Shown here: one piece after another, positions 5,294 through 32,116 of the stretch | Numbering within the stretch: the stretch's first letter is position 1 | How the letters are laid out: each line of letters starts with the position of its first letter | IMG/VR virus record: IMGVR_UViG_2537562173_000010 | Source: a virus | Taxonomy: Duplodnaviria > Heunggongvirae > Uroviricota > Caudoviricetes | Length of the DNA: 36,398 nt | Reading direction: 5' to 3' (one strand) | Made by a program: the position numbers and the translations under genes | Notes under the pieces: generated by a model | What the model saw: the letters and a program-made list of their open reading frames with translations, nothing else | Told to the model about the DNA's origin: nothing | Database searches by the model: none

Positions 5294-7741
5294 TTAACCG
5301 TCATGCATCATGCTGGCACGGGCGCGCGCACGTTTATCCCGCTCGTATTTTTCGAGCGCATCCTGTAACTGGCGGTCAAGCTGTGTCCCCGGCGCAGTAC
5401 CACCCGTCAGGCTGATGTGATATTCGTTTTTACTCTGGTCCACATAAGAGCGGCCAGCCGGTGCCGTGACCGGCTGATAAGCCTGATAGCCTGCATAAGA
5501 GCTGGTCGCCGGAATATAACCACCGGTGCCATACGTGGCGGCATGAGTTCTGGCGGCGGTCTGGTCAAGTGTGTCTGACTCTTTGTTGATAACACCGAGT
5601 TTTTCCAGTACCCAGTCAATACCGCTGCGCAGTTTGTTGAACGCATTAAGCGGCAGCATCAGCGCGTCAGCCAGTGCCTGCCCGAACATGACGCCCGTGT
5701 CACGGCAACGGTTCAGGGTGTCCCGGGTGGCTTTAACCGGAGCAATCAGGTTTGTAAACCACTGCCACGCGGCCTGTAACTTTTCGCCCAGCCAGTCAAA
5801 CACCGGCTTAAGTGGCGTGAACAGCTCCCCCACCGGCGCAAATGCCGCTTTCAGCCCTTCAACCACACCGCCAAAGAATGCGCTGACAGGCTCCCAGTAT
5901 TTACGGATAAGCAACGCCCCGGCGACAATGGCAGCCACCACGGCCACAACCGGCCAGCTAATCGCCCCGATGGCCGTCATAACAGCACTGCCAACCGTCG
6001 TGAAGATTGCCCCCATTGCGCCTGCTGCCGCGATAATAGCATTGATGCCGGTGATAACCGGCCAGGCTACGAGGCCAATGGCACCAATGATGCCAGTCAG
6101 CGCCAGTGCACCACCGGCAATTAGGCCAATGGTTAACGCCAGTGATTTGTTTTTCTGGATCCAGCCGTCGAGTTTTAACACATACTTTGTGGCCGTCTGC
6201 GTGAGCTTACGCAGTGCGCCTTCCTGCTGGTCAAACAGGTCAGTCCCCACCGCCTCATAAGCGGACTGAAACTCCTTAAAGTCACCGCCGAGGTTGTCCT
6301 GCATGATATTTACCAGTTCTGCGGTCTTTCCGTCTGAGGCTTTAAACGCAGCGGTCAGTTTGTCCAGCTTTCCGGTTGAGGCGGCAGTCATCAGCACGGC
6401 GGCGGCTGAACTGGCCTCCTCCCCGAAAATGGTTTTCATGTATTCAGCCTGCTGGGCAGTACCGAGCCGGTTTTTCTCAAAACTGGCCTGCATTTCTTTC
6501 AGAATGGTAAATACTGGTCGGGTGTTTCCCTTACTGTCTGAGGTTTTCACACCAAGCTCTTTGAGTGCATCCCATGCTTTTCCCGTCGGTGCCTGCAGGC
6601 GGCTTAACACGGCACGGCTTCCCGTTCCCGCCATTGAACCGGTAATTTTTGCATCATGCAGCGCCCCGACCATTGCGGCTGTTTCTTCAATGCTGACACC
6701 GGCATTTTTTGCCACAGGTGCGGCATAGGTCAGCGCATCGCTCATACCGTCAAAATCGGCGGCGGTTTTGTTCATCGTCATGGAGAGAACATCCCCGATA
6801 TGAGCGACCTTATCGTTTGAAAGCTGAAAGGCGGATTTCATCCCCATCAGCAGGGCGGCGTTTTCTTCCATCGTGCGGCGGTTCGCCAGCGCCATATTCA
6901 GCGTGACCGGCGTTGCCGCCTGAATGGCATCAACATCCCCACCGGCTTTCGCAATGATAATCTGCGCACCGGCAGCATCATCCGCCGAGGCGGCTGTGTT
7001 GTCGCCGAGCTGGCGCGCCTGTTTGCGTAGCGCGGCCATTTCGGCAGAATCTTTTGCCACACCGAGCACGGCCTGTAATTCTGAGTTTTTCTGCGCAAAC
7101 TCATAACCGGGCATCAGCAGCTTAACACCGGCCATCGTTCCCGCCGCCGCAATCCCCACACCGGCAGCGCCCACTGAGGCCATATTTCCGGCCAGTTCCT
7201 TTCCGGCCTGATAACGCTGTTTGACTGCGTTAAGTTTTGCCTGTTGCGCACTGACACGCGCCAGCGCGTCACGCTGCCGGTTAAGCTGGGCGGTGGTTTC
7301 ACTGATACGGTTTTTCAGTCCCTGCTCATCATGTGCAAGATTGCGGGTATTAATTCCCACAGCGGCCAGTTCCCGCTGCTGGCGTTTAACGGAATCTGTC
7401 AGGCGGTTATATTTCGCCTGTAAGTCCTCCGCCGCACGCTTTGCGGATTCCAGCACTTTCGCCTGAGCACGGGTCGGGCGTTCGGTGTTTTTAAACTGTG
7501 TGGCAAGGGCTTCGGCCTGCTGCCGTGCCTTTTCAAGTGCATGACCAGTCACGGCGAGCTGTGCACTGGTCTTGCGGAATCCCTCAATACGGGATGCGTG
7601 ACCGTTCAGCTCGCGCAGTGATTTTTGTGTTTCCCGGATATCCCCCGACAGCAACTTACTCGCTGTGCGGATGGATTTAAACGGGCGGGACGCCTGGTCA
7701 ACAGCCCTGAGCAATACCTGTAATTTTACATTGTTACTCAT
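5294..7741 (-). CDS. T: tail tape-measure protein T
   Basis: 815 aa, Ala/Gly-rich with long coiled-coil and hydrophobic segments; P2 gpT length and position. Confidence 0.9.
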   Translation of the reverse strand: MSNNVKLQVLLRAVDQASRPFKSIRTASKLLSGDIRETQKSLRELNGHASRIEGFRKTSAQLAVTGHALEKARQQAEALATQFKNTERPTRAQAKVLESAKRAAEDLQAKYNRLTDSVKRQQRELAAVGINTRNLAHDEQGLKNRISETTAQLNRQRDALARVSAQQAKLNAVKQRYQAGKELAGNMASVGAAGVGIAAAGTMAGVKLLMPGYEFAQKNSELQAVLGVAKDSAEMAALRKQARQLGDNTAASADDAAGAQIIIAKAGGDVDAIQAATPVTLNMALANRRTMEENAALLMGMKSAFQLSNDKVAHIGDVLSMTMNKTAADFDGMSDALTYAAPVAKNAGVSIEETAAMVGALHDAKITGSMAGTGSRAVLSRLQAPTGKAWDALKELGVKTSDSKGNTRPVFTILKEMQASFEKNRLGTAQQAEYMKTIFGEEASSAAAVLMTAASTGKLDKLTAAFKASDGKTAELVNIMQDNLGGDFKEFQSAYEAVGTDLFDQQEGALRKLTQTATKYVLKLDGWIQKNKSLALTIGLIAGGALALTGIIGAIGLVAWPVITGINAIIAAAGAMGAIFTTVGSAVMTAIGAISWPVVAVVAAIVAGALLIRKYWEPVSAFFGGVVEGLKAAFAPVGELFTPLKPVFDWLGEKLQAAWQWFTNLIAPVKATRDTLNRCRDTGVMFGQALADALMLPLNAFNKLRSGIDWVLEKLGVINKESDTLDQTAARTHAATYGTGGYIPATSSYAGYQAYQPVTAPAGRSYVDQSKNEYHISLTGGTAPGTQLDRQLQDALEKYERDKRARARASMMHDG

Positions 7742-8161
7742 TCGTGTTTCCGCTTCGCCTGAGCGCCTTTTCGCGCCATGTGATGAGTTCGGTCAGGCTC
7801 ATGGGATACAGTTCTGATGGCGGCCAGTGAAATATCACTGCCACATCCGCCATCAGGTCATCGACCGACAGATTTTTCGGAAGCGTCACTGCACCGAGTT
7901 CGGCGACAAAAAACCGACCACCTTACCGGCCAGCGCCACAAGGTCAGGCAGTTCCAGCGCGGCGACTTCCTGCTCGGTCAGCATCGGTGCCGTCATGCGC
8001 GGCAGCACCTTAATCAGTGCATCGACTTCGGAGTTCGCGACCGCAGCCAGACTGACACCGCGCAGCGTCCCGGCATTAGGTTTCATCAGCGTGACCTGTT
8101 CGATAACCTGCTCACCACGCTTGACCGGATTGTCCAGGGTAATCACATTTTCTTTGTTCAT
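7734..8161 (-). CDS. tail assembly chaperone E' (E+E' product of a programmed -1 frameshift)
   Basis: Slippery heptamer T-TTT-TTG (minus strand; plus coordinates 7907-7913) inside codons GGT-TTT-TTG of E. The -1 frame stays open to a TAA at 7734-7736, overlapping the T start. Confidence 0.7.
7886..8161 (-). CDS. E: tail assembly chaperone E
   Basis: 91 aa, the P2 gpE length. The ORF ends ...GKVVGFLSPNSVQ and contains the slippery run. Confidence 0.85.
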   Translation of the reverse strand: MNKENVITLDNPVKRGEQVIEQVTLMKPNAGTLRGVSLAAVANSEVDALIKVLPRMTAPMLTEQEVAALELPDLVALAGKVVGFLSPNSVQ

Positions 8162-8217
8162 GGTTTTCTCACTTCTGAATCGGGGTTAACCGGTCAGCCA
8201 GGCTGACCGGATGAAAA

Positions 8218-8736
8218 TCACAGGCCGATATTGCGGCGGTGTTGCTCCAGCCGGTCGACGCCGTTCACCTTCTCAATCATGTTGATGGTGTCGATTTCGA
8301 CCAGCTCCTTACCGTCCATCGTCAGCCGGAAATAGGTGCAGACCACGGAGATTTTCGACTCGGTGTCTTCTCCCTGTTTGCCCTCGCCGGTGTCGATTTC
8401 TTTCTGACGTCCACGCATGACCACCTCGACGGCCACCGTTTCGCCGGTATCGTCGCGCTGGTAAGAGCCTGCAAAACGAATCGGTACGGAATCCACACCG
8501 GTTGCGGCGTAAAGCTCCCAGATAACCGAATCCGGGAAGCCACCGAGCGACCACTCCATTGACAGCGCATCGTCATCAAGGCCGAGGTCTACCGGTGCGC
8601 TGCCGTTCATCCCCGCACCGCGATAGTTTTCGAGCTTACGGGTCAGTTTTGGTAGCGTGACGGACTTCGCGACGCCCTGATAGCTGTAGCCGTTCAGAAA
8701 GACGTTCATTAACTTGAGTTTGCGCGGCATTGCCAT
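8218..8736 (-). CDS. FII: tail tube protein FII
   Basis: 172 aa (MAMPRKLKLMNVFLNGYSYQG...), the P2 gpFII length. Confidence 0.9.
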   Translation of the reverse strand: MAMPRKLKLMNVFLNGYSYQGVAKSVTLPKLTRKLENYRGAGMNGSAPVDLGLDDDALSMEWSLGGFPDSVIWELYAATGVDSVPIRFAGSYQRDDTGETVAVEVVMRGRQKEIDTGEGKQGEDTESKISVVCTYFRLTMDGKELVEIDTINMIEKVNGVDRLEQHRRNIGL

Positions 8737-9941
8737 CGGTCAGGCTCCTTATAATTGCTGTTAACCGAGGTGACCAGATTTGCCAGGTATTTATTGGTAA
8801 TACGCTGGCGCAGGGTCAGGTTTTCAAGAGGAGGCACCGGTGTATAGTCGTAGTCGATATACAGTTTTCCGGCCTTGAGGGTTTCCGCATCGTTGGATTC
8901 TTCGCTGAACCAGCAGGTCGCATCCACGATATAGCCGTTTGTTTTCAGCTCACGGAATTTGGCATTGATGCCGTCAACGATGTCGCGAATCAGCGTTGCG
9001 GTGATGGGCTTGTCCACCGCCCACATGTGCGCCTCAGCCATCGTGTCAGCCAGTACCTGCGCGGTGCGGGTGTAGTTTTCAAAGAGGAACAGCGGGTCAT
9101 CAGAGCAGGTACGGTTACCCCAGAATCGGAAACCGTCGCGGCGAATCAGCGTAGTGACGCCTGACTCGTTAAGCAGGTCAGCATCGGTGCCGGACTCCTG
9201 CAAATCCCAGAATACAGATGCGCTGATGCCGGTAACACCGTTTACCCCGACGTTGGACAGCGTTTTATGCCAGCCCTGCTCCTGGTCGATTTTAGCGCGC
9301 AGACCCAGCGCACGGGCGGTGGCATACGCGGTAGCGGTGGTACTGGTGACCGTATCCCATGCGAGGAAATCCGGCCAGATGACCATCAGCTCACGCTGGC
9401 TGAAATTCTGGCGGTAGGCTTTCACCTCGGAAATGGTCTTACAGCCCCATGCGCTGATATATCCGAAAGCGCGCAGCTTCTGACAGACGGATGCCAGTGC
9501 AACAGCCACCTCTTTGGTATCCAGTCCCGGCACACCGAGAATACGCGGTTTAACACCGGTTACCGACTCCGCCGCCAGCAGGGCTTTTAGTCCGGTGTAC
9601 TGACCGTTTTCGTCGGTGGTGCCGATGATATTGGAAACGGTCTGCGCGAGTTTCGTTTCCTCGTCATCACCGGTGCAGTCTTCCACGCGCACGACAACGG
9701 TGACCGGTTTTGACTGGTCAGCGATGGCCTGCAACGATGCCGCCAGCGTGCCTTTTTTACCGGCCTTTGCAATTGCGCTTTGCACATTGGTAATCAGCAC
9801 CGGTTTATTGAGGGGGAAGGTTTCCGCATCCGCATCGCTGGCCGTGCAGACCATGCCGACAATGGCAGTGGATACGGTGGAAATGACGCGGGTGCCGTCG
9901 TTAATCTCCAGCACCTGCACGCCATGATGATAGTCACTCAT
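8709..9941 (-). CDS. FI: contractile tail sheath protein FI
   Basis: 410 aa (MSDYHHGVQVLEINDGTRV...), sheath position upstream of FII. About 14 aa longer than my recollection of P2 FI. Confidence 0.85.
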   Translation of the reverse strand: MSDYHHGVQVLEINDGTRVISTVSTAIVGMVCTASDADAETFPLNKPVLITNVQSAIAKAGKKGTLAASLQAIADQSKPVTVVVRVEDCTGDDEETKLAQTVSNIIGTTDENGQYTGLKALLAAESVTGVKPRILGVPGLDTKEVAVALASVCQKLRAFGYISAWGCKTISEVKAYRQNFSQRELMVIWPDFLAWDTVTSTTATAYATARALGLRAKIDQEQGWHKTLSNVGVNGVTGISASVFWDLQESGTDADLLNESGVTTLIRRDGFRFWGNRTCSDDPLFLFENYTRTAQVLADTMAEAHMWAVDKPITATLIRDIVDGINAKFRELKTNGYIVDATCWFSEESNDAETLKAGKLYIDYDYTPVPPLENLTLRQRITNKYLANLVTSVNSNYKEPDRWQCRANSS

Positions 9942-10045
9942 CCGTTTAACTCCGTGGTTAATGGGTACAACTATTTTCTGTTGTGCAGAGCATAAGACGC
10001 TATTTGACCTGGCTGGTCAGTGGATGAAACAACAGATAAAGAAAA

Positions 10046-10064
10046 GGCGGGCAATTCGCCCGCC
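10046..10064 (-). terminator. hairpin terminator between the cargo island and FI
   Basis: Perfect 7-bp stem GGCGGGC / GCCCGCC with loop AATTC; on the minus strand it is followed by TTTTCTTTATCTG. Confidence 0.5.
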
Positions 10065-10120
10065 TGTCCTGATTTGTACTCACTCATTTTCCGCCTGACA
10101 ATTTACATAGCCCAAATGCT

Positions 10121-10144
10121 ATCAAACCTGACAGTCTGCTTTGA
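10121..10144 (+). repeat. site A: 23-bp near-palindromic repeat on the left flank of the cargo cassette
   Basis: ATCAAACCTGACAGTCTGCTTTGA; 21/23 identical to site B at 12431-12454 in direct orientation. Internally an imperfect palindrome (TCAAAC...CTTTGA). Confidence 0.65.
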
Positions 10145-10271
10145 GCGAAAAGTGGACATTAGAGTTACAAAAGCAAGTTTAAATCATCCAAAATATTACA
10201 ATGTCCTTATCTATCTGATATCGTTATGATAAAAAGCTCCTGAATATAATCGATAGTAGGTGGTTATTTCC

Positions 10272-10649
10272 ATGAAATCAATTTTAGAGGTCTTTACTCA
10301 AGGAAATACTAAAGAAAAACTGGCTGTTATCGCCGATCTCACAACCATTGCGGGAATATCGATTGCAACTATTATTGCTGGTTTGTTAACCCTAGTTGCA
10401 AAAACAGATAAACTAGATGTTGGAAATCTGTTTGGAGTTGTCATAATATCTCTGCTCGGATTGGCTGGTGTTTGCTGTTTTGTGGCCTTATTTATTTGGG
10501 TTATAACCCAAATGTCTAAACCATGGGGAACACCTCGGGGGGTTCAGCCCTTAGTTAAGTGTGCTATTTCCCTTATCTTTATCTGTATGTTTTTGCTGGC
10601 TGTCTTTACATTTTATGAGTTTATTTCTTCGATGAGCATACGCTATTGA
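10272..10649 (+). CDS. small integral membrane protein (about 125 aa, 3-4 predicted TM helices)
   Basis: ATG at 10272 with AGGTGG RBS 9 nt upstream (the ORF track starts at GTG 10260). Highly hydrophobic, AT-rich, in the Z/fun position and oriented opposite to the tail genes. Confidence 0.55.
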   Translation: MKSILEVFTQGNTKEKLAVIADLTTIAGISIATIIAGLLTLVAKTDKLDVGNLFGVVIISLLGLAGVCCFVALFIWVITQMSKPWGTPRGVQPLVKCAISLIFICMFLLAVFTFYEFISSMSIRY

Positions 10650-10671
10650 ATATAAAATCAGCCCCCATAAC

Positions 10672-11256
10672 TTAAAAGAGACCTTCTATATCGACTTCAA
10701 TGCCCAAATAACGGACTGTGCTTTCCAGTTTCTTATGGCCCAACAGAAGTTGGATCACCCGGAGACTCTTGGTTTTCTTGTAGATTAAGTAAGGTTTTGT
10801 TCTTCTCATGGAATGTGTGCTGTACAGCGAATCTTCGAGACCAAGCTTTTCTACCCACCCATGAAAAATTCGGTTGTATTGCCGGGTTGATATATGGTGG
10901 GTAGTTCCGACCCGAGAGCGGAACAGGAAGCCTTTACTATGCCAGTTGCCGAGCTTTATCAATGCAGTAACCGCTTCCCTTGTCCCTTTGGTTATCTCAA
11001 ATTGGACAGGGCTGCCGGTTTTCTGTTGCAACACCGTTGCTCTGCTTGAGACAGAACTGCCATATGCAGCATCTGATACTTTGAGTTTGACCAAATCACA
11101 GCCCCGTAGCTTAGTGTCCAAAGCCATGTTGAACAGAGCTAGATCGCGTGTTTTACCTTCCAACTCAAGTCTAATCCGGATCCCCCAGATATGAAATATC
11201 TGAAGTGGCCTTTTTTGACCGATGGTACGGTCTTTATTCCACGGTGACGTTTTCAT
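10672..11256 (-). CDS. small tyrosine recombinase, FimB/FimE-like (catalytic domain only, about 194 aa)
   Basis: Tyrosine-recombinase boxes: TKLRGCDLVKLKVSD (box I Arg), HSMRRT (H-x-x-R), LLGHKKLESTVRYLGIE (catalytic RY). No N-terminal core-binding domain. Start taken at internal Met MKTSPWNK with GGAG RBS; the ORF track's 228-aa extension is rejected. Confidence 0.75.
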   Translation of the reverse strand: MKTSPWNKDRTIGQKRPLQIFHIWGIRIRLELEGKTRDLALFNMALDTKLRGCDLVKLKVSDAAYGSSVSSRATVLQQKTGSPVQFEITKGTREAVTALIKLGNWHSKGFLFRSRVGTTHHISTRQYNRIFHGWVEKLGLEDSLYSTHSMRRTKPYLIYKKTKSLRVIQLLLGHKKLESTVRYLGIEVDIEGLF

Positions 11257-11362
11257 ATTCAAATCTCCTGCAATGTGGGAGATTTGAGTATGGTTGTCTC
11301 TCAAGAGCGAAAATAAGTCAACTATCACTAGTTGTTGCGCATGTACGTATTCTGTCAATTAA

Positions 11363-12205
11363 TTATTGACAATCATCAATTCTGGAATGATCAAAATCAT
11401 CATATCGAATTATAGTCTGGTTGACTGTATCTATTGTTGGTGTCATTTCTGTTATAATATCCTGATAACCTAAAGAGTTAAATACATTTACTAAGGCCTC
11501 ACACCGAAGGGCCGTAGCAATTACAAAATTATAAATTGCCAGCCGTTTATTTTCTTGTTTAACTGCAAGAATGAATTCGATAGCAGTATTTTCATCACTT
11601 TGGATTGCATTATATAGAGATACTATATTTACCATATCATCAGAGAATGTATGTATTGAATCACAAAGGGGAACGTAATGGGCATGATAGTGTGTTTCCC
11701 AGCCAATTAATTCAAAAAGTCTTCTGGTTCCTGGATATTCAGGTGTATTTGGCCACAATCTATTAAATAGATCAGTTAGTTCTTTTCCCATGCGAATCCT
11801 TTCATTTGCTGCTGGATTAGTCATTCCTTTGGATTTTAAACACTCCAGCCACCGTTTTCCATTACTATGAACTAATTTCTTACTAGCCTTGAGTAATGCT
11901 TGTGCATTTTCGCCATCATCTATTGCTATATAAAATTGATTGGCAGCCTGTTCTATTATAACCCTAGCTAATACTTCCGATGCTGAAAAGGCTCCTATAT
12001 TCAAAGAAGAGATAGCCTGATTACTAAGTTCATTCAGTACATTAAAGTACTGTAAGACCATCAATTTTTGTTCCACACCCTTTAGGTTGTCTATTTTATT
12101 TTTATGCTCCTCAAATTTTGCATGGATATATTTATTTATCGCGGCTATTTTTTTTACATCTTCGTCAAGATCAAACGGGCAACGTCCAAACAATTCTTTT
12201 TTCAT
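11363..12205 (-). CDS. hypothetical protein (280 aa), AT-rich cargo
   Basis: ORF with strong RBS (AGGAGA 6 nt upstream of the ATG). Very AT-rich. No P-loop or nuclease motif I recognise. Co-oriented with and 106 bp upstream of the recombinase gene. Confidence 0.65.
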   Translation of the reverse strand: MKKELFGRCPFDLDEDVKKIAAINKYIHAKFEEHKNKIDNLKGVEQKLMVLQYFNVLNELSNQAISSLNIGAFSASEVLARVIIEQAANQFYIAIDDGENAQALLKASKKLVHSNGKRWLECLKSKGMTNPAANERIRMGKELTDLFNRLWPNTPEYPGTRRLFELIGWETHYHAHYVPLCDSIHTFSDDMVNIVSLYNAIQSDENTAIEFILAVKQENKRLAIYNFVIATALRCEALVNVFNSLGYQDIITEMTPTIDTVNQTIIRYDDFDHSRIDDCQ

Positions 12206-12430
12206 ATATTTCTCCTGTTGTACAAGCTTCCATAAGTTGGCAGATTATACACTGAAGATTACCTATAAATAGCTGTGCGGGATAGCAGATCAGTGCAAGA
12301 AGTACAACCAAGTGAACTGTGCGTATTCAGATACCTGGCCTAACGTTCGCGATAGCCGTCCCCTGCACGAAGCCATATATTAGATGTATTAGCTCAGACC
12401 TTATCTGACAGGTTGAGTAGGTAGAATCTA

Positions 12431-12454
12431 ATCAAAGCTGACAGTCTGGTTTGG
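12431..12454 (+). repeat. site B: 23-bp near-palindromic repeat on the right flank of the cargo cassette
   Basis: ATCAAAGCTGACAGTCTGGTTTGG; shares the exact core CTGACAGTCTG with site A in direct orientation. Confidence 0.65.
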
Positions 12455-12550
12455 ACTGTGAGTTCAACCGATGGATGCAACACACAGCGATCTACGGACA
12501 TTACTAGCATAGCTGTGTATTAATCATCGGGAAGCAGGTCAGTCCGCTCC

Positions 12551-12592
12551 TAGCACAGAGCAGACTGTCAGATTAGGCTTTACTCTGTGCTA
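12551..12592. repeat. hairpin with 10-bp perfect stem carrying an inverted copy (site C) of the recombinase-site core
   Basis: TAGCACAGAG (12551-12560) pairs with CTCTGTGCTA (12583-12592). The loop contains CAGACTGTCAG, the reverse complement of the A/B core; the extended match to A is 13 bp (ATCTGACAGTCTGCT). Confidence 0.6.
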
Positions 12593-12626
12593 TAGATACG
12601 TTAGCTCACTCCAGAGATCATACAAC

Positions 12627-13154
12627 TTATTGCGGCATTTCCGGCCATTCAGGATTTGCAGGATCCACACGGCTGACCAGAACACTGTAGCGTTCCCATG
12701 CTTCCAGTCGGCTACGCTCCTCATCTGTTGCCATATTCAGTCTGACAGAGCGTTCCAGTGGCTGAATGATAGTTTCAGCTTCGGAAAGCAAAGCTGACTT
12801 CTGTAATTCCGCCAGTTGCAGCTGTTCGTCTGCCGTATAAATCCGCTTAATCACGGCACCATCCTTAAACATCCATTTACCTGAGTCATCAGCACGTCGG
12901 TTGGCGGTAATATCAGGAACCTCGACAACGCTAAAACCTTCAGGGTTGAGCGTTGAAGCATCTCTGGTGATGCCGACAATTATATTATTCTCATCGTAAA
13001 CAATCTTTATCGTGTCTTCCTGAAAATTACTTACTTCCTCATACCAGTTTTTTCCCTCTTCGGACCATAACCAGATAACATCAAAATTTTTTGTCAGTTG
13101 ATATTGGGCAACAGTTTTTGGATTACCCGCAGTAATATTTTTTAAATGCTGCAT
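12627..13154 (-). CDS. G: tail fibre assembly protein G
   Basis: 175 aa, the P2 gpG length, immediately downstream of H. Confidence 0.85.
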
Positions 13155-29782: not shown

Positions 29783-32116
29783 TCAAACACAGAAAAAATC
29801 AAAGCGCCCTATGAATCCCCCCCAACCATCAGCGACCGGATACGTGAATTTTTTCCCGTCATAATTTACGGTCGCTCCACGCGCCAGCGCCTCAAGCTCC
29901 CATCGCTGCGGCATGATACCGTTCTGAGCAAGGTCAACGCGGATACGGGTGATTTGCAATCGTTCAGACCTGGTCAGTCTGGCAGATGGTGCAATTTCAT
30001 GCGGTTTTAACGGGCTTCCGTTTCTTTGCTGACGGTTTGGCGTTCTCAGGTCGTATTTTAATGCGCCCCTGAGCGCCCTCACGACCTCCGGTTCATTCCA
30101 TTCAATAACACCGTCATCAACCAGATTAAGCACTGCTGCGGCGTGCTCAGAAGGTGTGGGAGCCGGTAACGAAGTATCACCACCGGTGAGCTTTCCACAG
30201 TTATTGACAGGACTCCGAGGCGCGGCGATGCCGCTTTTTAAAGTCAAAGGCTCAACGACCGGAACTTTCGGCACAATGCGCCAGTCCGTCGTTCTGGTGA
30301 TATGAATATGACGCGCGCCGAGATGCGGCGCGTAAATGCCGACCACTCTCTCGACTTCTTCCTCGTACTCGTTAACGTCATCCGACGGGCTACGGGCAAC
30401 CCTGACAGTCTGACAATCGCGCGGGACATTTGCCCCCCCCTGCGCGCTGATATACAACGCAAAATCACCACTGTCTGCGGCAGCGCGAGCAGCCTCGACG
30501 CGTTCGTCAAACTCATCAGCAATACTGACGCCGCGAGGCAATTTGCGTAGTTCACGGTAAGCCCCCATTGTCGGCAGGCCAACCGTTTTAAATTGCGGAA
30601 TTCGCCACGTTGACGCCCATGCGGTAACAGCCGCAGCAGTATCTTTCAGCGGCCTGCCGGTATCATTATCGAGCTGACCATCCAGTGCATAGCCATCGAT
30701 GTTTTTTGAGATGTATTTTGCGATATACCCCGCAGCACCGCCCCGGTTAAGATGTTTTGCCTGAAAACGGTTTCGCGCGGCTCCTCTTTCGTCGCCATCC
30801 TCTTTGAGCGCATAGCGACGCATGATTTCGATAATCTGGTTACGCTGGCGTGGATTACAAAAAAGCATCATATGCCAGTGCGGCGTTCCGTCGTGGTGTG
30901 GCTCGACGACACGCAAACCGTAGACCTGTAAATCATTATCCTTGAATGCCGTGCGCATCAGGCTCCAGATATGGCAGAGATAACGCTGCGCATCCTTTGG
31001 ATTAAATGCCTCATCGTTCCAGCCGTGATTTAGCTGGACGGTTTTACTTTCGCCTTTTCCGACCTGACGTGTCGGGTGATACTTTGACGGCGCGGTAAGC
31101 GTGATAAACATCCCCACATCACCCTCTGCGGCGGCGTAACGCTCAATACCGGCAATGGTGTTCATCAGCTCCATCCGGCGAATTTCAGGATTAGAAATAC
31201 TGCCCATCACCTTACTGATAAGGTCGATGCGTTCGCCGGTTTCCCTGTTTTCAAGGTCACACGATTTAAGAAATTCCAGATTTGCCTGGCGGCGTGCACG
31301 CACATCACGAATGGCATGTTTACTGGCATAAGGTGAACGGTCTTTATTGACCTCCCCGACAGCAATCAGTAACGCCTCATGCCAGCGCATACGCTGGCCT
31401 TTAAGCTGACTAATCCACCACTCATCGTTAAACAGGCGGGCAATGGCAGAATATGCCTGCCTCGTGGTCATCTGTCCTTTACGGTATTTTTTCCAGTAGA
31501 GCGGGGAAATATTGAAAGCACGTGCAGCGCCAGCAACATGACCATAGAGGTGAGCCTGCGCCTCATCCGTAAACAGCGATTCTTTTTCGCCATGCGCATC
31601 CACCCAGGCATCGCAGAGTTCCTCATACATCATGAAAAGCTGCGATGAGATACGGGCGGCAAACTTTTTCAGCTCCTTATCATTCATCCCCGGCAGACGC
31701 GCATAATGGTCACGCTCTGCCAGAAACAGCAACGACGCGTCGGTGTTCATTTCATGGCGCTGATTCACACGCTCAATGCGCGGCCATAAACGACGCTGAA
31801 AAGTGGATGTGAGGAAATAAAACCCGTGCACCGGGCTTTTATTGCGCCGGATGTAGTCATAGCGTGAAGTAAACAGCGAGCGCAAAAAGTAAGGCAGGCG
31901 GTTAATCGTGGATAAAACACCTTGCACCTGACGCATCTCGTCACGTGTAAGGGGTCTTTCGCGCCCGACGGCCTCGCGTGGCGCGTTCCATGCATAAGCA
32001 CCGGTAAACGTCTTACCGGTGCCTGCGGTAAATGCTGACGGAGGGACAAAACGCCCGGAGGCTTTAACGGCCATATGAGCCAAAAGCCTCTGAACAACGC
32101 TTGCTGAGTTGCTCAA
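29783..32116 (-). CDS. A: replication initiation protein A (rolling-circle nickase)
   Basis: 777 aa in the P2 gpA position (P2 gpA is about 761 aa from memory); large basic protein adjacent to the early-operon ORFs. Confidence 0.85.
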   Translation of the reverse strand: MSNSASVVQRLLAHMAVKASGRFVPPSAFTAGTGKTFTGAYAWNAPREAVGRERPLTRDEMRQVQGVLSTINRLPYFLRSLFTSRYDYIRRNKSPVHGFYFLTSTFQRRLWPRIERVNQRHEMNTDASLLFLAERDHYARLPGMNDKELKKFAARISSQLFMMYEELCDAWVDAHGEKESLFTDEAQAHLYGHVAGAARAFNISPLYWKKYRKGQMTTRQAYSAIARLFNDEWWISQLKGQRMRWHEALLIAVGEVNKDRSPYASKHAIRDVRARRQANLEFLKSCDLENRETGERIDLISKVMGSISNPEIRRMELMNTIAGIERYAAAEGDVGMFITLTAPSKYHPTRQVGKGESKTVQLNHGWNDEAFNPKDAQRYLCHIWSLMRTAFKDNDLQVYGLRVVEPHHDGTPHWHMMLFCNPRQRNQIIEIMRRYALKEDGDERGAARNRFQAKHLNRGGAAGYIAKYISKNIDGYALDGQLDNDTGRPLKDTAAAVTAWASTWRIPQFKTVGLPTMGAYRELRKLPRGVSIADEFDERVEAARAAADSGDFALYISAQGGANVPRDCQTVRVARSPSDDVNEYEEEVERVVGIYAPHLGARHIHITRTTDWRIVPKVPVVEPLTLKSGIAAPRSPVNNCGKLTGGDTSLPAPTPSEHAAAVLNLVDDGVIEWNEPEVVRALRGALKYDLRTPNRQQRNGSPLKPHEIAPSARLTRSERLQITRIRVDLAQNGIMPQRWELEALARGATVNYDGKKFTYPVADGWGGFIGRFDFFCV

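Follow-up and report, generated by a model that had tools for sequence, protein, structure and literature searches.

A putative cassette-exchange docking site at the Z/fun hotspot of P2-like phages and a family of small tyrosine recombinases associated with it

The Z/fun hotspot of P2-like phages carries anti-phage defence genes (Rousset et al. 2022, PMC9122126). Comparison of this hotspot in a P2-like prophage (IMG/VR record IMGVR_UViG_2537562173_000010; 36,398 nucleotides (nt), hereafter the window) with related phages, plasmids and chromosomes indicates that it is probably a docking site for gene cassettes exchanged by tyrosine recombinases of one family, which have about 200 residues and consist of the catalytic domain only. 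In the window, an AT-rich insert of 2.4 kb separates the P2 genes FI and G, and the GC content drops from 0.53–0.59 to 0.31–0.48 across approximately positions 10000–12500. An initial annotation of this DNA described the insert, its three open reading frames (ORFs) and three copies of a repeat motif, all of which are present; the ORFs encode a membrane-protein-like product (ORF125), a tyrosine recombinase and a DUF5677 protein (Table 1). Exact copies of the motif, CTGACAGTCTG, lie at 10128 (plus strand), 12438 (plus strand) and 12561 (minus strand), in sites A, B and C, respectively, and a fourth lies at 30402. Four copies in the window compare with 0.27 expected, and this number was reached in none of 100 shuffles. 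The fourth copy (30402–30412) was rejected as a site; it lies in coding DNA and its flanks show no similarity, and so it most likely arose by chance.

Sites A (10121–10143) and B (12431–12453) are identical at 21 of 23 positions, with a likeness that runs to 49 nt at 71%, and the 33-nt inverted repeat whose arms are A and C shows 79% complementarity. The likeness of A and B had been taken to define a 23-base-pair (bp) palindromic site with TCAAAC and CTTTGA arms; the likeness stands, but the real unit is a 24-bp core, and CTGACAGTCTG consists of the inner arm AGCAGAC of this core together with neighbouring P2 backbone. The core is seen in 80 scanned loci that carry the recombinase gene, each from a different GTDB species-representative genome apart from a few second contigs of the same genome. 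Its outer arm GTCCGCTNN measures 9 bp, its centre 7 bp and its inner arm NAGCRGAC 8 bp, and it occurs as an L site, GTCCGCTyy-TCGCTCA-nAGCrGAC, and an R site, GTCCGCTyy-TGGCACA-nAGCGGAC. Motifs resembling GTCCGCTTTTCGCTCA are found 2–10 times per locus, compared with about 0.1 expected, and the information content of the sites peaks in the central 7 bp and is least at positions 8–9. The orientation of the sites relative to the recombinase gene is nearly uniform: L sites are found 104 times in the plus and 6 times in the minus orientation, R sites twice in the plus and 80 times in the minus orientation (184:8 overall), and 40 shuffled loci contain no L or R site at all.

In most of the 80 loci, an L core is located 63 nt 5' of the recombinase start codon, and an inverted R core lies past the stop codon. 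The distal end of the conserved sequence just 5' of the recombinase gene, TGAGCGAAAAGCGGAC, is also the sequence with which the P2 left flank ends where the cargo joins it. Where an L and an R core stand face to face, they form an imperfect palindrome of 66 nt, the length being exactly 66 nt in 25 of 37 full elements. A full element is made of both ends with 18 nt between them, and the recombinase gene itself sits inside such an element in the order L, gene, inverted R. The segments between 66-nt elements have a median length of 1355 nt and contain one to three genes on either strand. E. coli genomes contain a median of one and a maximum of six 66-nt elements, confined to islands, and a genome-wide repeat of the REP (repetitive extragenic palindromic) or ERIC (enterobacterial repetitive intergenic consensus) kind was rejected on this copy number. 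The 66-nt elements of three array loci have no family match in Rfam. An nhmmer profile of the full element, built from 66-nt elements adjoining recombinase genes in other species, matches the window at 10157–10118 (model positions 1–40, E=0.002) and at 12580–12542 (model positions 28–66, E=7e-4), which supports the earlier proposal that the repeats serve such a tyrosine recombinase as recombination sites. A site scan of the whole window identifies A and C as its only two core sites.

Sites A and C belong to the P2 backbone. A megablast search against phage records gives matches limited to the two flanks of the insert, about 11% of the query. In alignments with P2, P2-EC58 and P2-EC67, the backbone is kept as far as about 10157 on the left side and resumes at about 12542 on the right, the cargo in between being unrelated, and both sites are also present in about 45 IMG/VR P2-like contigs that lack the recombinase. 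The insert had been interpreted as a self-contained cassette with its own bracketing sites; the occurrence of A and C in P2-like phages without the recombinase is the very finding that the initial annotation had set against its own interpretation, and this part of it is not supported, although A and C, as an R- or L-type core, are more than ordinary backbone. The GenBank records AJ512683 and AJ512685 annotate the stretches of A and C as 'right/left inverted repeat', the 'left inverted repeat' corresponding to the R site plus 12566–12626. These two records presumably stem from the 2004 study of Nilsson, Karlsson and Haggard-Ljungquist, cited in PMC9122126, whose title reportedly names site-specific recombination as a factor in how these phages evolved.

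All 101 core sites found in 974 kb of P2-like IMG/VR contigs fall in the Z hotspot. Read along the late-gene strand, the order is '<R cargo L>' in nearly all of about 46 P2-like loci with both anchors, with a few of the sites being degenerate. The 46 hotspot cargos form 31 clusters, and several hotspots carry two or three cassettes, parted by full elements or by solitary L cores. The per-position entropy over 30 cargo types is 0.5–0.8 bits in the outer arm and 1.3–1.4 bits at the following NN positions, and falls to about 0.2 bits from the centre inward. This step places the true cargo boundary between site positions 9 and 10 (10148|10149 and 12550|12551). Sites A and C therefore mark exact cargo boundaries, as had been suggested, but site B does not, being internal to an imported module. 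The clusters include retron I-B (a reverse transcriptase with an ATPase-Toprim protein), PARIS (AriA/AriB), PD-T7-1, PDC-S15 and a TIR-domain protein (loci L121, L124, L164, L129 and L156), in keeping with the anti-phage cargo that the initial annotation expected at this hotspot. The core sites of phage P2 itself (L003) are degenerate, with TTGTTCA as the L centre and TCTACTCC as the R outer arm, and so its Z/fun cargo may be locked in place.

Identical cassettes are found in unrelated replicons with exact ends. The 984-nt cargo of the P2-like locus L114 is 99.9% identical from end to end to positions 6646–7629 of the IncY plasmid pZPK-H98 (L103), where the copy begins directly after the R site of the recombinase. 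The 1917-nt cargo of L164, which is PD-T7-1 (PADLOC E=1.5e-156), is 99.1% identical from end to end to positions 7631–9547 of the lambdoid prophage L018, where it spans the distance from the L site of the recombinase to the next R site. Both shared cassettes stay identical across the outer arm, NN and the centre, and the match stops at the inner arm. The E. coli strains NQ3 (L104) and KSC207 (L105) differ by the exact product of the integration of a circle by L x L recombination. The implied circle consists of DUF6650 and one 66-nt element, with the crossover in TGAGCGA: in L104 the P2 inner arm and TGAGCGA are now joined to a new outer arm, and the former outer arm AAAGTGGAC remains linked to ORF125, with the inner arm of the circle now ahead of it. 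In every case examined, NN stays with the cargo and the inner arm with the backbone, and the crossovers fall within about 7 bp. Such a restriction of crossovers to 7 bp flanked by conserved arms is a hallmark of conservative site-specific recombination and is difficult to account for by exchange driven by homology. Cassette exchange, which had been put forward as an idea, is thereby supported by shared cassettes whose junctions lie in the 7-bp centre.

The same data bear on two other explanations. The palindromes may be passive, serving as insulators, terminators or protein-binding sites, with the cargo being swapped by homologous or Red-type recombination in the short flanks and the recombinase being an unrelated passenger or a decayed integrase. 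Since the arms and the centre are conserved, short-homology crossovers would land there too, and the lack of a recombinase gene in most hotspots and the degenerate sites of P2 itself fit this explanation. We nevertheless regard it as unlikely, because the crossovers fall within about 7 bp each time with the same partition of NN and inner arm, because there are two distinct and highly conserved centres in a strict orientation, and because in 80 species an L and an R core enclose the recombinase gene, with cassettes abutting the recombinase's own L and R cores and an element length fixed at 66 nt. Alternatively, the 66-nt elements could be non-autonomous derivatives, resembling MITEs (miniature inverted-repeat transposable elements) or REPINs, of a minimal unit that is composed of L end, recombinase and R end and measures about 710 bp; they would insert between genes, so that the elements move and the cassettes do not. 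The location of the gene between inverted ends, the composition of the full element from two ends and 18 nt, and the existence of remnant ends without a gene are in line with such an origin. Identical cassettes with exact end-to-end boundaries in unrelated replicons, hybrid sites that fit circle integration, the uniform orientation within arrays and the low copy number restricted to islands make it very unlikely.

These observations lead us to infer that the recombinase family is the catalyst of cassette exchange and that the cassette intermediates are circular. The 200-residue recombinase would bind the 8–9-bp arms and swap strands over the 7-bp centre. Two differing positions in their centres would keep L and R types from recombining with each other. 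Recombination between like cores in direct repeat (L x L or R x R) would release a circle containing the cassette and one 66-nt element, and the circle could then insert at any like core, including the single L and R cores of P2-like phages. P2-like phages have a single R core following G (site C) and a single L core ahead of the late terminator (site A), and all P2 hotspot cargo lies between the R core C and the L core A.

The recombinase scores 64.3 bits against the Pfam profile PF00589 (cutoff 27.1), and its catalytic residues Arg-51, Lys-79, His-148, Arg-151, His-174 and Tyr-183 are present and invariant in the family alignment. It had been described as FimB/FimE-like, an assignment that does not hold: the NCBIfam models NF007371 (cutoff 222) and NF007370 (cutoff 221) give scores of 22.8 and 14.3 bits, respectively. 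Membership of the integron integrases IntI was likewise rejected (18 bits for NF011946 and TIGR02249, cutoffs 435 and 265; the proteins have 194–200 residues and no N-terminal domain), as was an XerC/XerD equivalog (43 and 25 bits, cutoffs 335 and 330), and the best NCBIfam similarity is to Xer-type recombinases. Homologues of about 200 residues with 75–95% identity are found in many Enterobacterales, including Proteus, Providencia, Pantoea, Enterobacter, Klebsiella, Buttiauxella, Rahnella and Hafnia, and more distant ones in marine Gammaproteobacteria. A DNA copy with 88–90% identity is present in 942 of 5426 complete E. coli genomes, including Nissle 1917 and ATCC 25922. The neighbouring genes vary from locus to locus and are often defence-like, for example AbiGi, TIR/SEFIR with HNH, and ETEC_3214.

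A hairpin covers the start of the recombinase gene (Table 1), and homologues with 60–73% identity (L076, L078, L079, L086 and L095, just upstream of 6001) have a hairpin of different sequence that also sequesters the Shine-Dalgarno sequence. This suggests that the hairpin blocks translation of read-through transcripts, a tight translational control as in some insertion sequences. Remnants of 80–107 bp comprising the 5' end of the recombinase gene and the L site persist without the gene in L020 (4001–4107), L021 (4001–4076) and L022 (4001–4081), adjoining defence-like genes in prophages (in one case an anti-phage dGTPase) and on a plasmid. The recombinase region is matched by 565 Klebsiella plasmids, with coverage below 80% in most matches. 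The 'xerC' located beside mcr-10 (PMC7067168) was considered as a possible relative by identity; no MCR-like gene is present in the loci examined, and no entry of the plasmid match list, which does not show neighbouring genes, points to an mcr-10 plasmid. On the marine contigs L008–L011, from a metagenome and a metagenome-assembled genome, homologues with 79% identity lie between arsenic- and copper-resistance modules of an element resembling integrative and conjugative elements. In L070 (9678–9860), a recombinase cassette array adjoins a P1-type C4 antisense RNA and its targets, and so the system may occur in P1-like phage DNA too.

The insert of the window is composed of two cassettes with separate histories. 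Window positions 9942–10690 correspond at 98.7% identity to the hotspot of KSC207, whose sole cargo is a complete ORF125 cassette of 857 nt; this cassette adjoins a DUF6650 cassette in L104, L148 and L154. Positions 12565–10690 correspond at 96.6% identity to a Buttiauxella chromosome (L023), where the homology begins inside the R core and the module comes after a full element. The module comprises 41 nt, an element termed B', the DUF5677 gene, a degenerate L site and the recombinase gene, and a variant with 85–90% identity is found in the lambdoid prophage L019 beside an AAA-ATPase/HNH pair. The degenerate L site is the junction of the recombinase unit and the DUF5677 cassette, and a homologue of the 41-nt spacer precedes the recombinase-proximal L site in some species (L028, L038 and L101 at 5896–5951). 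The ORF125 part and the module are joined at 10690, within the terminator loop of ORF125, where the homology to the recombinase family starts, and this fusion removes 323 nt of the ORF125 cassette, the R site of the recombinase and its last 12 codons. The ORF125 cassette would have been resident first in this prophage, the module from a Buttiauxella-like array would then have entered through a crossover in the R core, and a later deletion would have joined the 3' end of the recombinase gene to the ORF125 terminator.

The 194-residue protein of the window, which shares 80–95% identity with other members, is a truncated member of its family. The C-terminal sequence DDALEISESIEV, at least 90% conserved in the family, is replaced by DIEGLF from residue 190, and the R-type site that normally lies 3' of the gene, and that other loci keep (+6630/6645), is deleted. 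The local copy is probably an inactive, decayed fossil.

Element B' contains site B. Its core is interrupted at TCGCT^CA by a 32-nt palindromic insert (12458–12490). Both the lambdoid prophage L019 and Buttiauxella L023 have B' in unchanged form together with the module, and so site B, which lies in variable DNA, belongs to the imported module and not to P2. The 32-nt insert may be the footprint of recombination at the crossover point. The same insert is also present in a Raoultella array (L041, 7654–7683 and 8851–8880) in both orientations.

The arrangement of A and B in direct and C in inverted orientation, all with CTGACAGTCTG and with a recombinase with intact catalytic residues in between, had been read as a self-contained mobile or invertible switch, in which A x B recombination excises the insert and A x C or B x C recombination inverts the insert or the 85-bp B–C segment. 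At least 80% of the insert is carried by 36 of 5426 complete E. coli genomes, and the listed full-length copies form a single colinear piece, with one exception interrupted by an IS3-family element (NZ_CM160072.1, E. coli); no excision or inversion variant is seen among these 36 genomes. The centres of A and C differ (TCGCTCA and TAGCACA), and so inversion through A x C should be blocked. Site B is an L-type core split by the 32-nt insert. An invertible switch was rejected on the unlike centres and the absence of orientation variants, and with A and C being backbone in phages that lack the recombinase, the recombinase tail replaced and the insert made of two cassettes, we consider a self-contained switch of either kind highly improbable.

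Cassette exchange also has to be weighed against the possibility that the recombinase-like protein and the DUF5677 protein form a two-gene functional unit, such as an anti-phage system in which the recombinase fold serves as sensor or effector, that has no role in mobility. The two genes are linked in three contexts, P2, a lambdoid prophage and the Buttiauxella chromosome, the L site between them is degenerate, and DUF5677 is enriched beside serine recombinases in Bacillota (bioRxiv 10.1101/2025.10.07.681051). Even so, recombinases with 80–95% identity lie beside dozens of unrelated genes, no PADLOC match was obtained, and an Enterococcus DUF5677 ORF tested in the same preprint is absent from the ORFs reported as defensive, so that such a unit has very little to commend it. 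The products of all three ORFs give zero matches in PADLOC-DB 2.0 at E<=0.1, a sequence search of the PDB finds nothing for the recombinase and only noise for the DUF5677 protein, and the insert has no family match in Rfam. A defence role of ORF125 and the DUF5677 protein is plausible only from their location.

The features of the hotspot and its surroundings are listed in Table 1. The terminator on its left closes the V–G late operon together with cargo read-through and lies outside the cassette system. Positions 9950–12640 of the window are matched at 100% identity by E. coli ATCC 11775 and by several further strains listed, APEC O1:K1:H7 isolates among them, and at 99.7% identity by S88. 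The FI sheath ORF has 410 residues, and most of 80 IMG/VR relatives, namely those that are close and of E. coli type, match residues 1–396 only; in the lineage of this prophage, FI has a 14-residue C-terminal extension that overlaps the start of FII.

Table 1. Features of the Z/fun hotspot in the window, with strand and basis of assignment.
Feature	Position	Strand	Basis or remarks
FI sheath	8709–9941	-	
Rho-independent terminator, P2 backbone	10045–10065	-	Terminator scan; kept in P2, EC58 and EC67
L-type core, site A	10134–10157	-	GTCCACTTT-TCGCTCA-AAGCAGAC; one mismatch to the L consensus
Site A, inner arm, P2 backbone	10134–10141	-	Comparison of cargo types
Site A, 7-bp centre (proposed crossover region)	10142–10148	-	Comparison of cargo types
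Site A, outer arm, travels with cargo	10149–10157	-	Comparison of cargo types
ORF125 cassette, 3'-truncated	10158–10690	+	Ends in the loop of its own terminator hairpin
ORF125, 125 residues, long hydrophobic stretches	10272–10649	+	phrog_4155 (function unknown)
Tyrosine recombinase, 194 residues	10672–11256	-	PF00589, E=1.6e-17
Hairpin, 14–15 bp, covering the recombinase Shine-Dalgarno sequence and ATG	11254–11292	-	Inverted repeat; kept family-wide
Recombinase-proximal L-type site, degenerate	11296–11319	-	GACTTATTT-TCGCTCT-TGAGAGAC; consensus GTCCGCTTT-TCGCTCA-TAAGGGAC
DUF5677 protein, 280 residues	11363–12205	-	PF18928, E=8e-10; phrog_4167; all-helical bundle
Element B', including site B (12431–12454)	12395–12499	-	A-like L-type element
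Spacer, 41 nt, end of the imported module	12500–12541	-	Homology to array loci
R-type core, site C	12542–12565	+	GTCCGCTCC-TAGCACA-GAGCAGAC
Site C, outer arm, arrived with cargo	12542–12550	+	Comparison of cargo types
Site C, centre, one mismatch to TGGCACA	12551–12557	+	Comparison with the R consensus
Site C, inner arm, P2 backbone	12558–12565	+	Comparison of cargo types
P2 backbone between the R site and the G stop codon	12566–12626	.	Alignment to P2 relatives
G, tail-fibre assembly protein	12627–13154	-	

Several points weigh against cassette exchange by this recombinase family. The case is built throughout on sequence comparison, the division of the core into 9, 7 and 8 bp and the cleavage positions are deduced in the same manner, and the recombinase is assigned as the catalyst through association only. 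The window is itself a damaged example: its own L site and the centre of its R site are degenerate, its recombinase lacks the last 12 residues, which form the near-invariant C-terminal tail, as well as the R site, and no excised or inverted form is seen among the 36 genomes that carry the insert. Most P2 hotspots lack the recombinase gene, which is found in about 17% of complete E. coli genomes, and so the enzyme would have to be supplied in trans. The module end in L019 has no recognisable R site alongside, and a site scan detects no site of the enterobacterial consensus beside the marine homologues of about 79% identity (L008–L011), so that any sites of these homologues must be of another sequence.

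The proposed system resembles integrons in that a tyrosine recombinase stands beside an array of gene cassettes, with imperfect palindromes of 60–70 nt in one orientation between the cassettes; the palindromes are flanked by ...AAC and GTT..., like the R'' and R' boxes of attC, identical cassettes occur in unrelated replicons, the junctions fit the integration of circular cassettes, and anti-phage genes are among the cargo. It differs in that the enzyme is a 200-residue protein of the catalytic domain only and not IntI, the recombinase gene lies inside an element, each element has two cores with unlike 7-bp centres, its sequence and two-core make-up seeming to differ from attC, and docking sites are embedded in phage genomes. 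Since the cassette genes lie on either strand, a single upstream promoter like Pc cannot read all of them. The two inverted sites with common arms, unlike crossover regions and a swappable segment between them are also reminiscent of recombinase-mediated cassette exchange engineered with Cre/lox or FLP/FRT, whereas the system described here is natural, has arms of 8–9 bp and a centre of 7 bp, and would owe its exchange to a heterospecificity deduced from the sites.

The recombinase shares with the FimB/FimE invertases a size of about 200 residues and the lack of an N-terminal core-binding domain, but it scores far under their cutoffs, and no invertible segment or orientation variant is seen in the 36 genomes. 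A gene between inverted copies of a palindromic repeat, with doublet palindromes elsewhere, is also seen in the REP/REPIN-RAYT systems. RAYTs, however, are HUH enzymes, whereas the protein here matches PF00589 and no other Pfam family, and its repeats are of low copy number, restricted to islands, and delimit exchangeable cassettes. In Xer modules (pdif, IMEX), short core sites of tyrosine recombinases bound exchangeable modules as well; in contrast to these, no dif-like 11-6-11 architecture is seen here by eye, and the element encodes its own recombinase. The Z-region hotspot with its annotated left and right inverted repeats is the same locus with the same flanking repeats.

That repeats flank the Z region has been on record since 2004, as has the idea that site-specific recombination takes place there. 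The recombinase family, the 24-bp anatomy, the two centres, the 66-nt elements and the shared cassettes seem to be new, as no description was found in the searchable (non-subscription) literature. A broader reading, towards which we lean slightly, is that these loci represent an unrecognised integron-like platform in Enterobacterales and some other Gammaproteobacteria, in which the 200-residue recombinase would move circular cassettes from L/R sites to L/R sites, and temperate phages (at the P2 Z/fun site and lambdoid hotspots), plasmids (including IncY) and genomic islands would keep docking points.

Defence hotspots in P2-like phages and other prophages are well documented, and no mechanism for a precise swap of their cargo was found in the searchable literature. 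The present results point to a particular enzyme family and to a 24-bp site whose crossover region measures 7 bp, and they explain the inverted repeats that have been known around the P2 Z region for 20 years. The validated PD-T7-1 system travels as a cassette between a P2-like phage and a lambdoid prophage. The L and R cores together with the 66-nt elements provide a sequence rule that delimits cassettes and could be used to mine new defence genes, as attC is for integrons. If the platform exists as proposed, it would be a direct enzymatic mechanism for the fast turnover of anti-phage defence genes at phage 'hotspots'.

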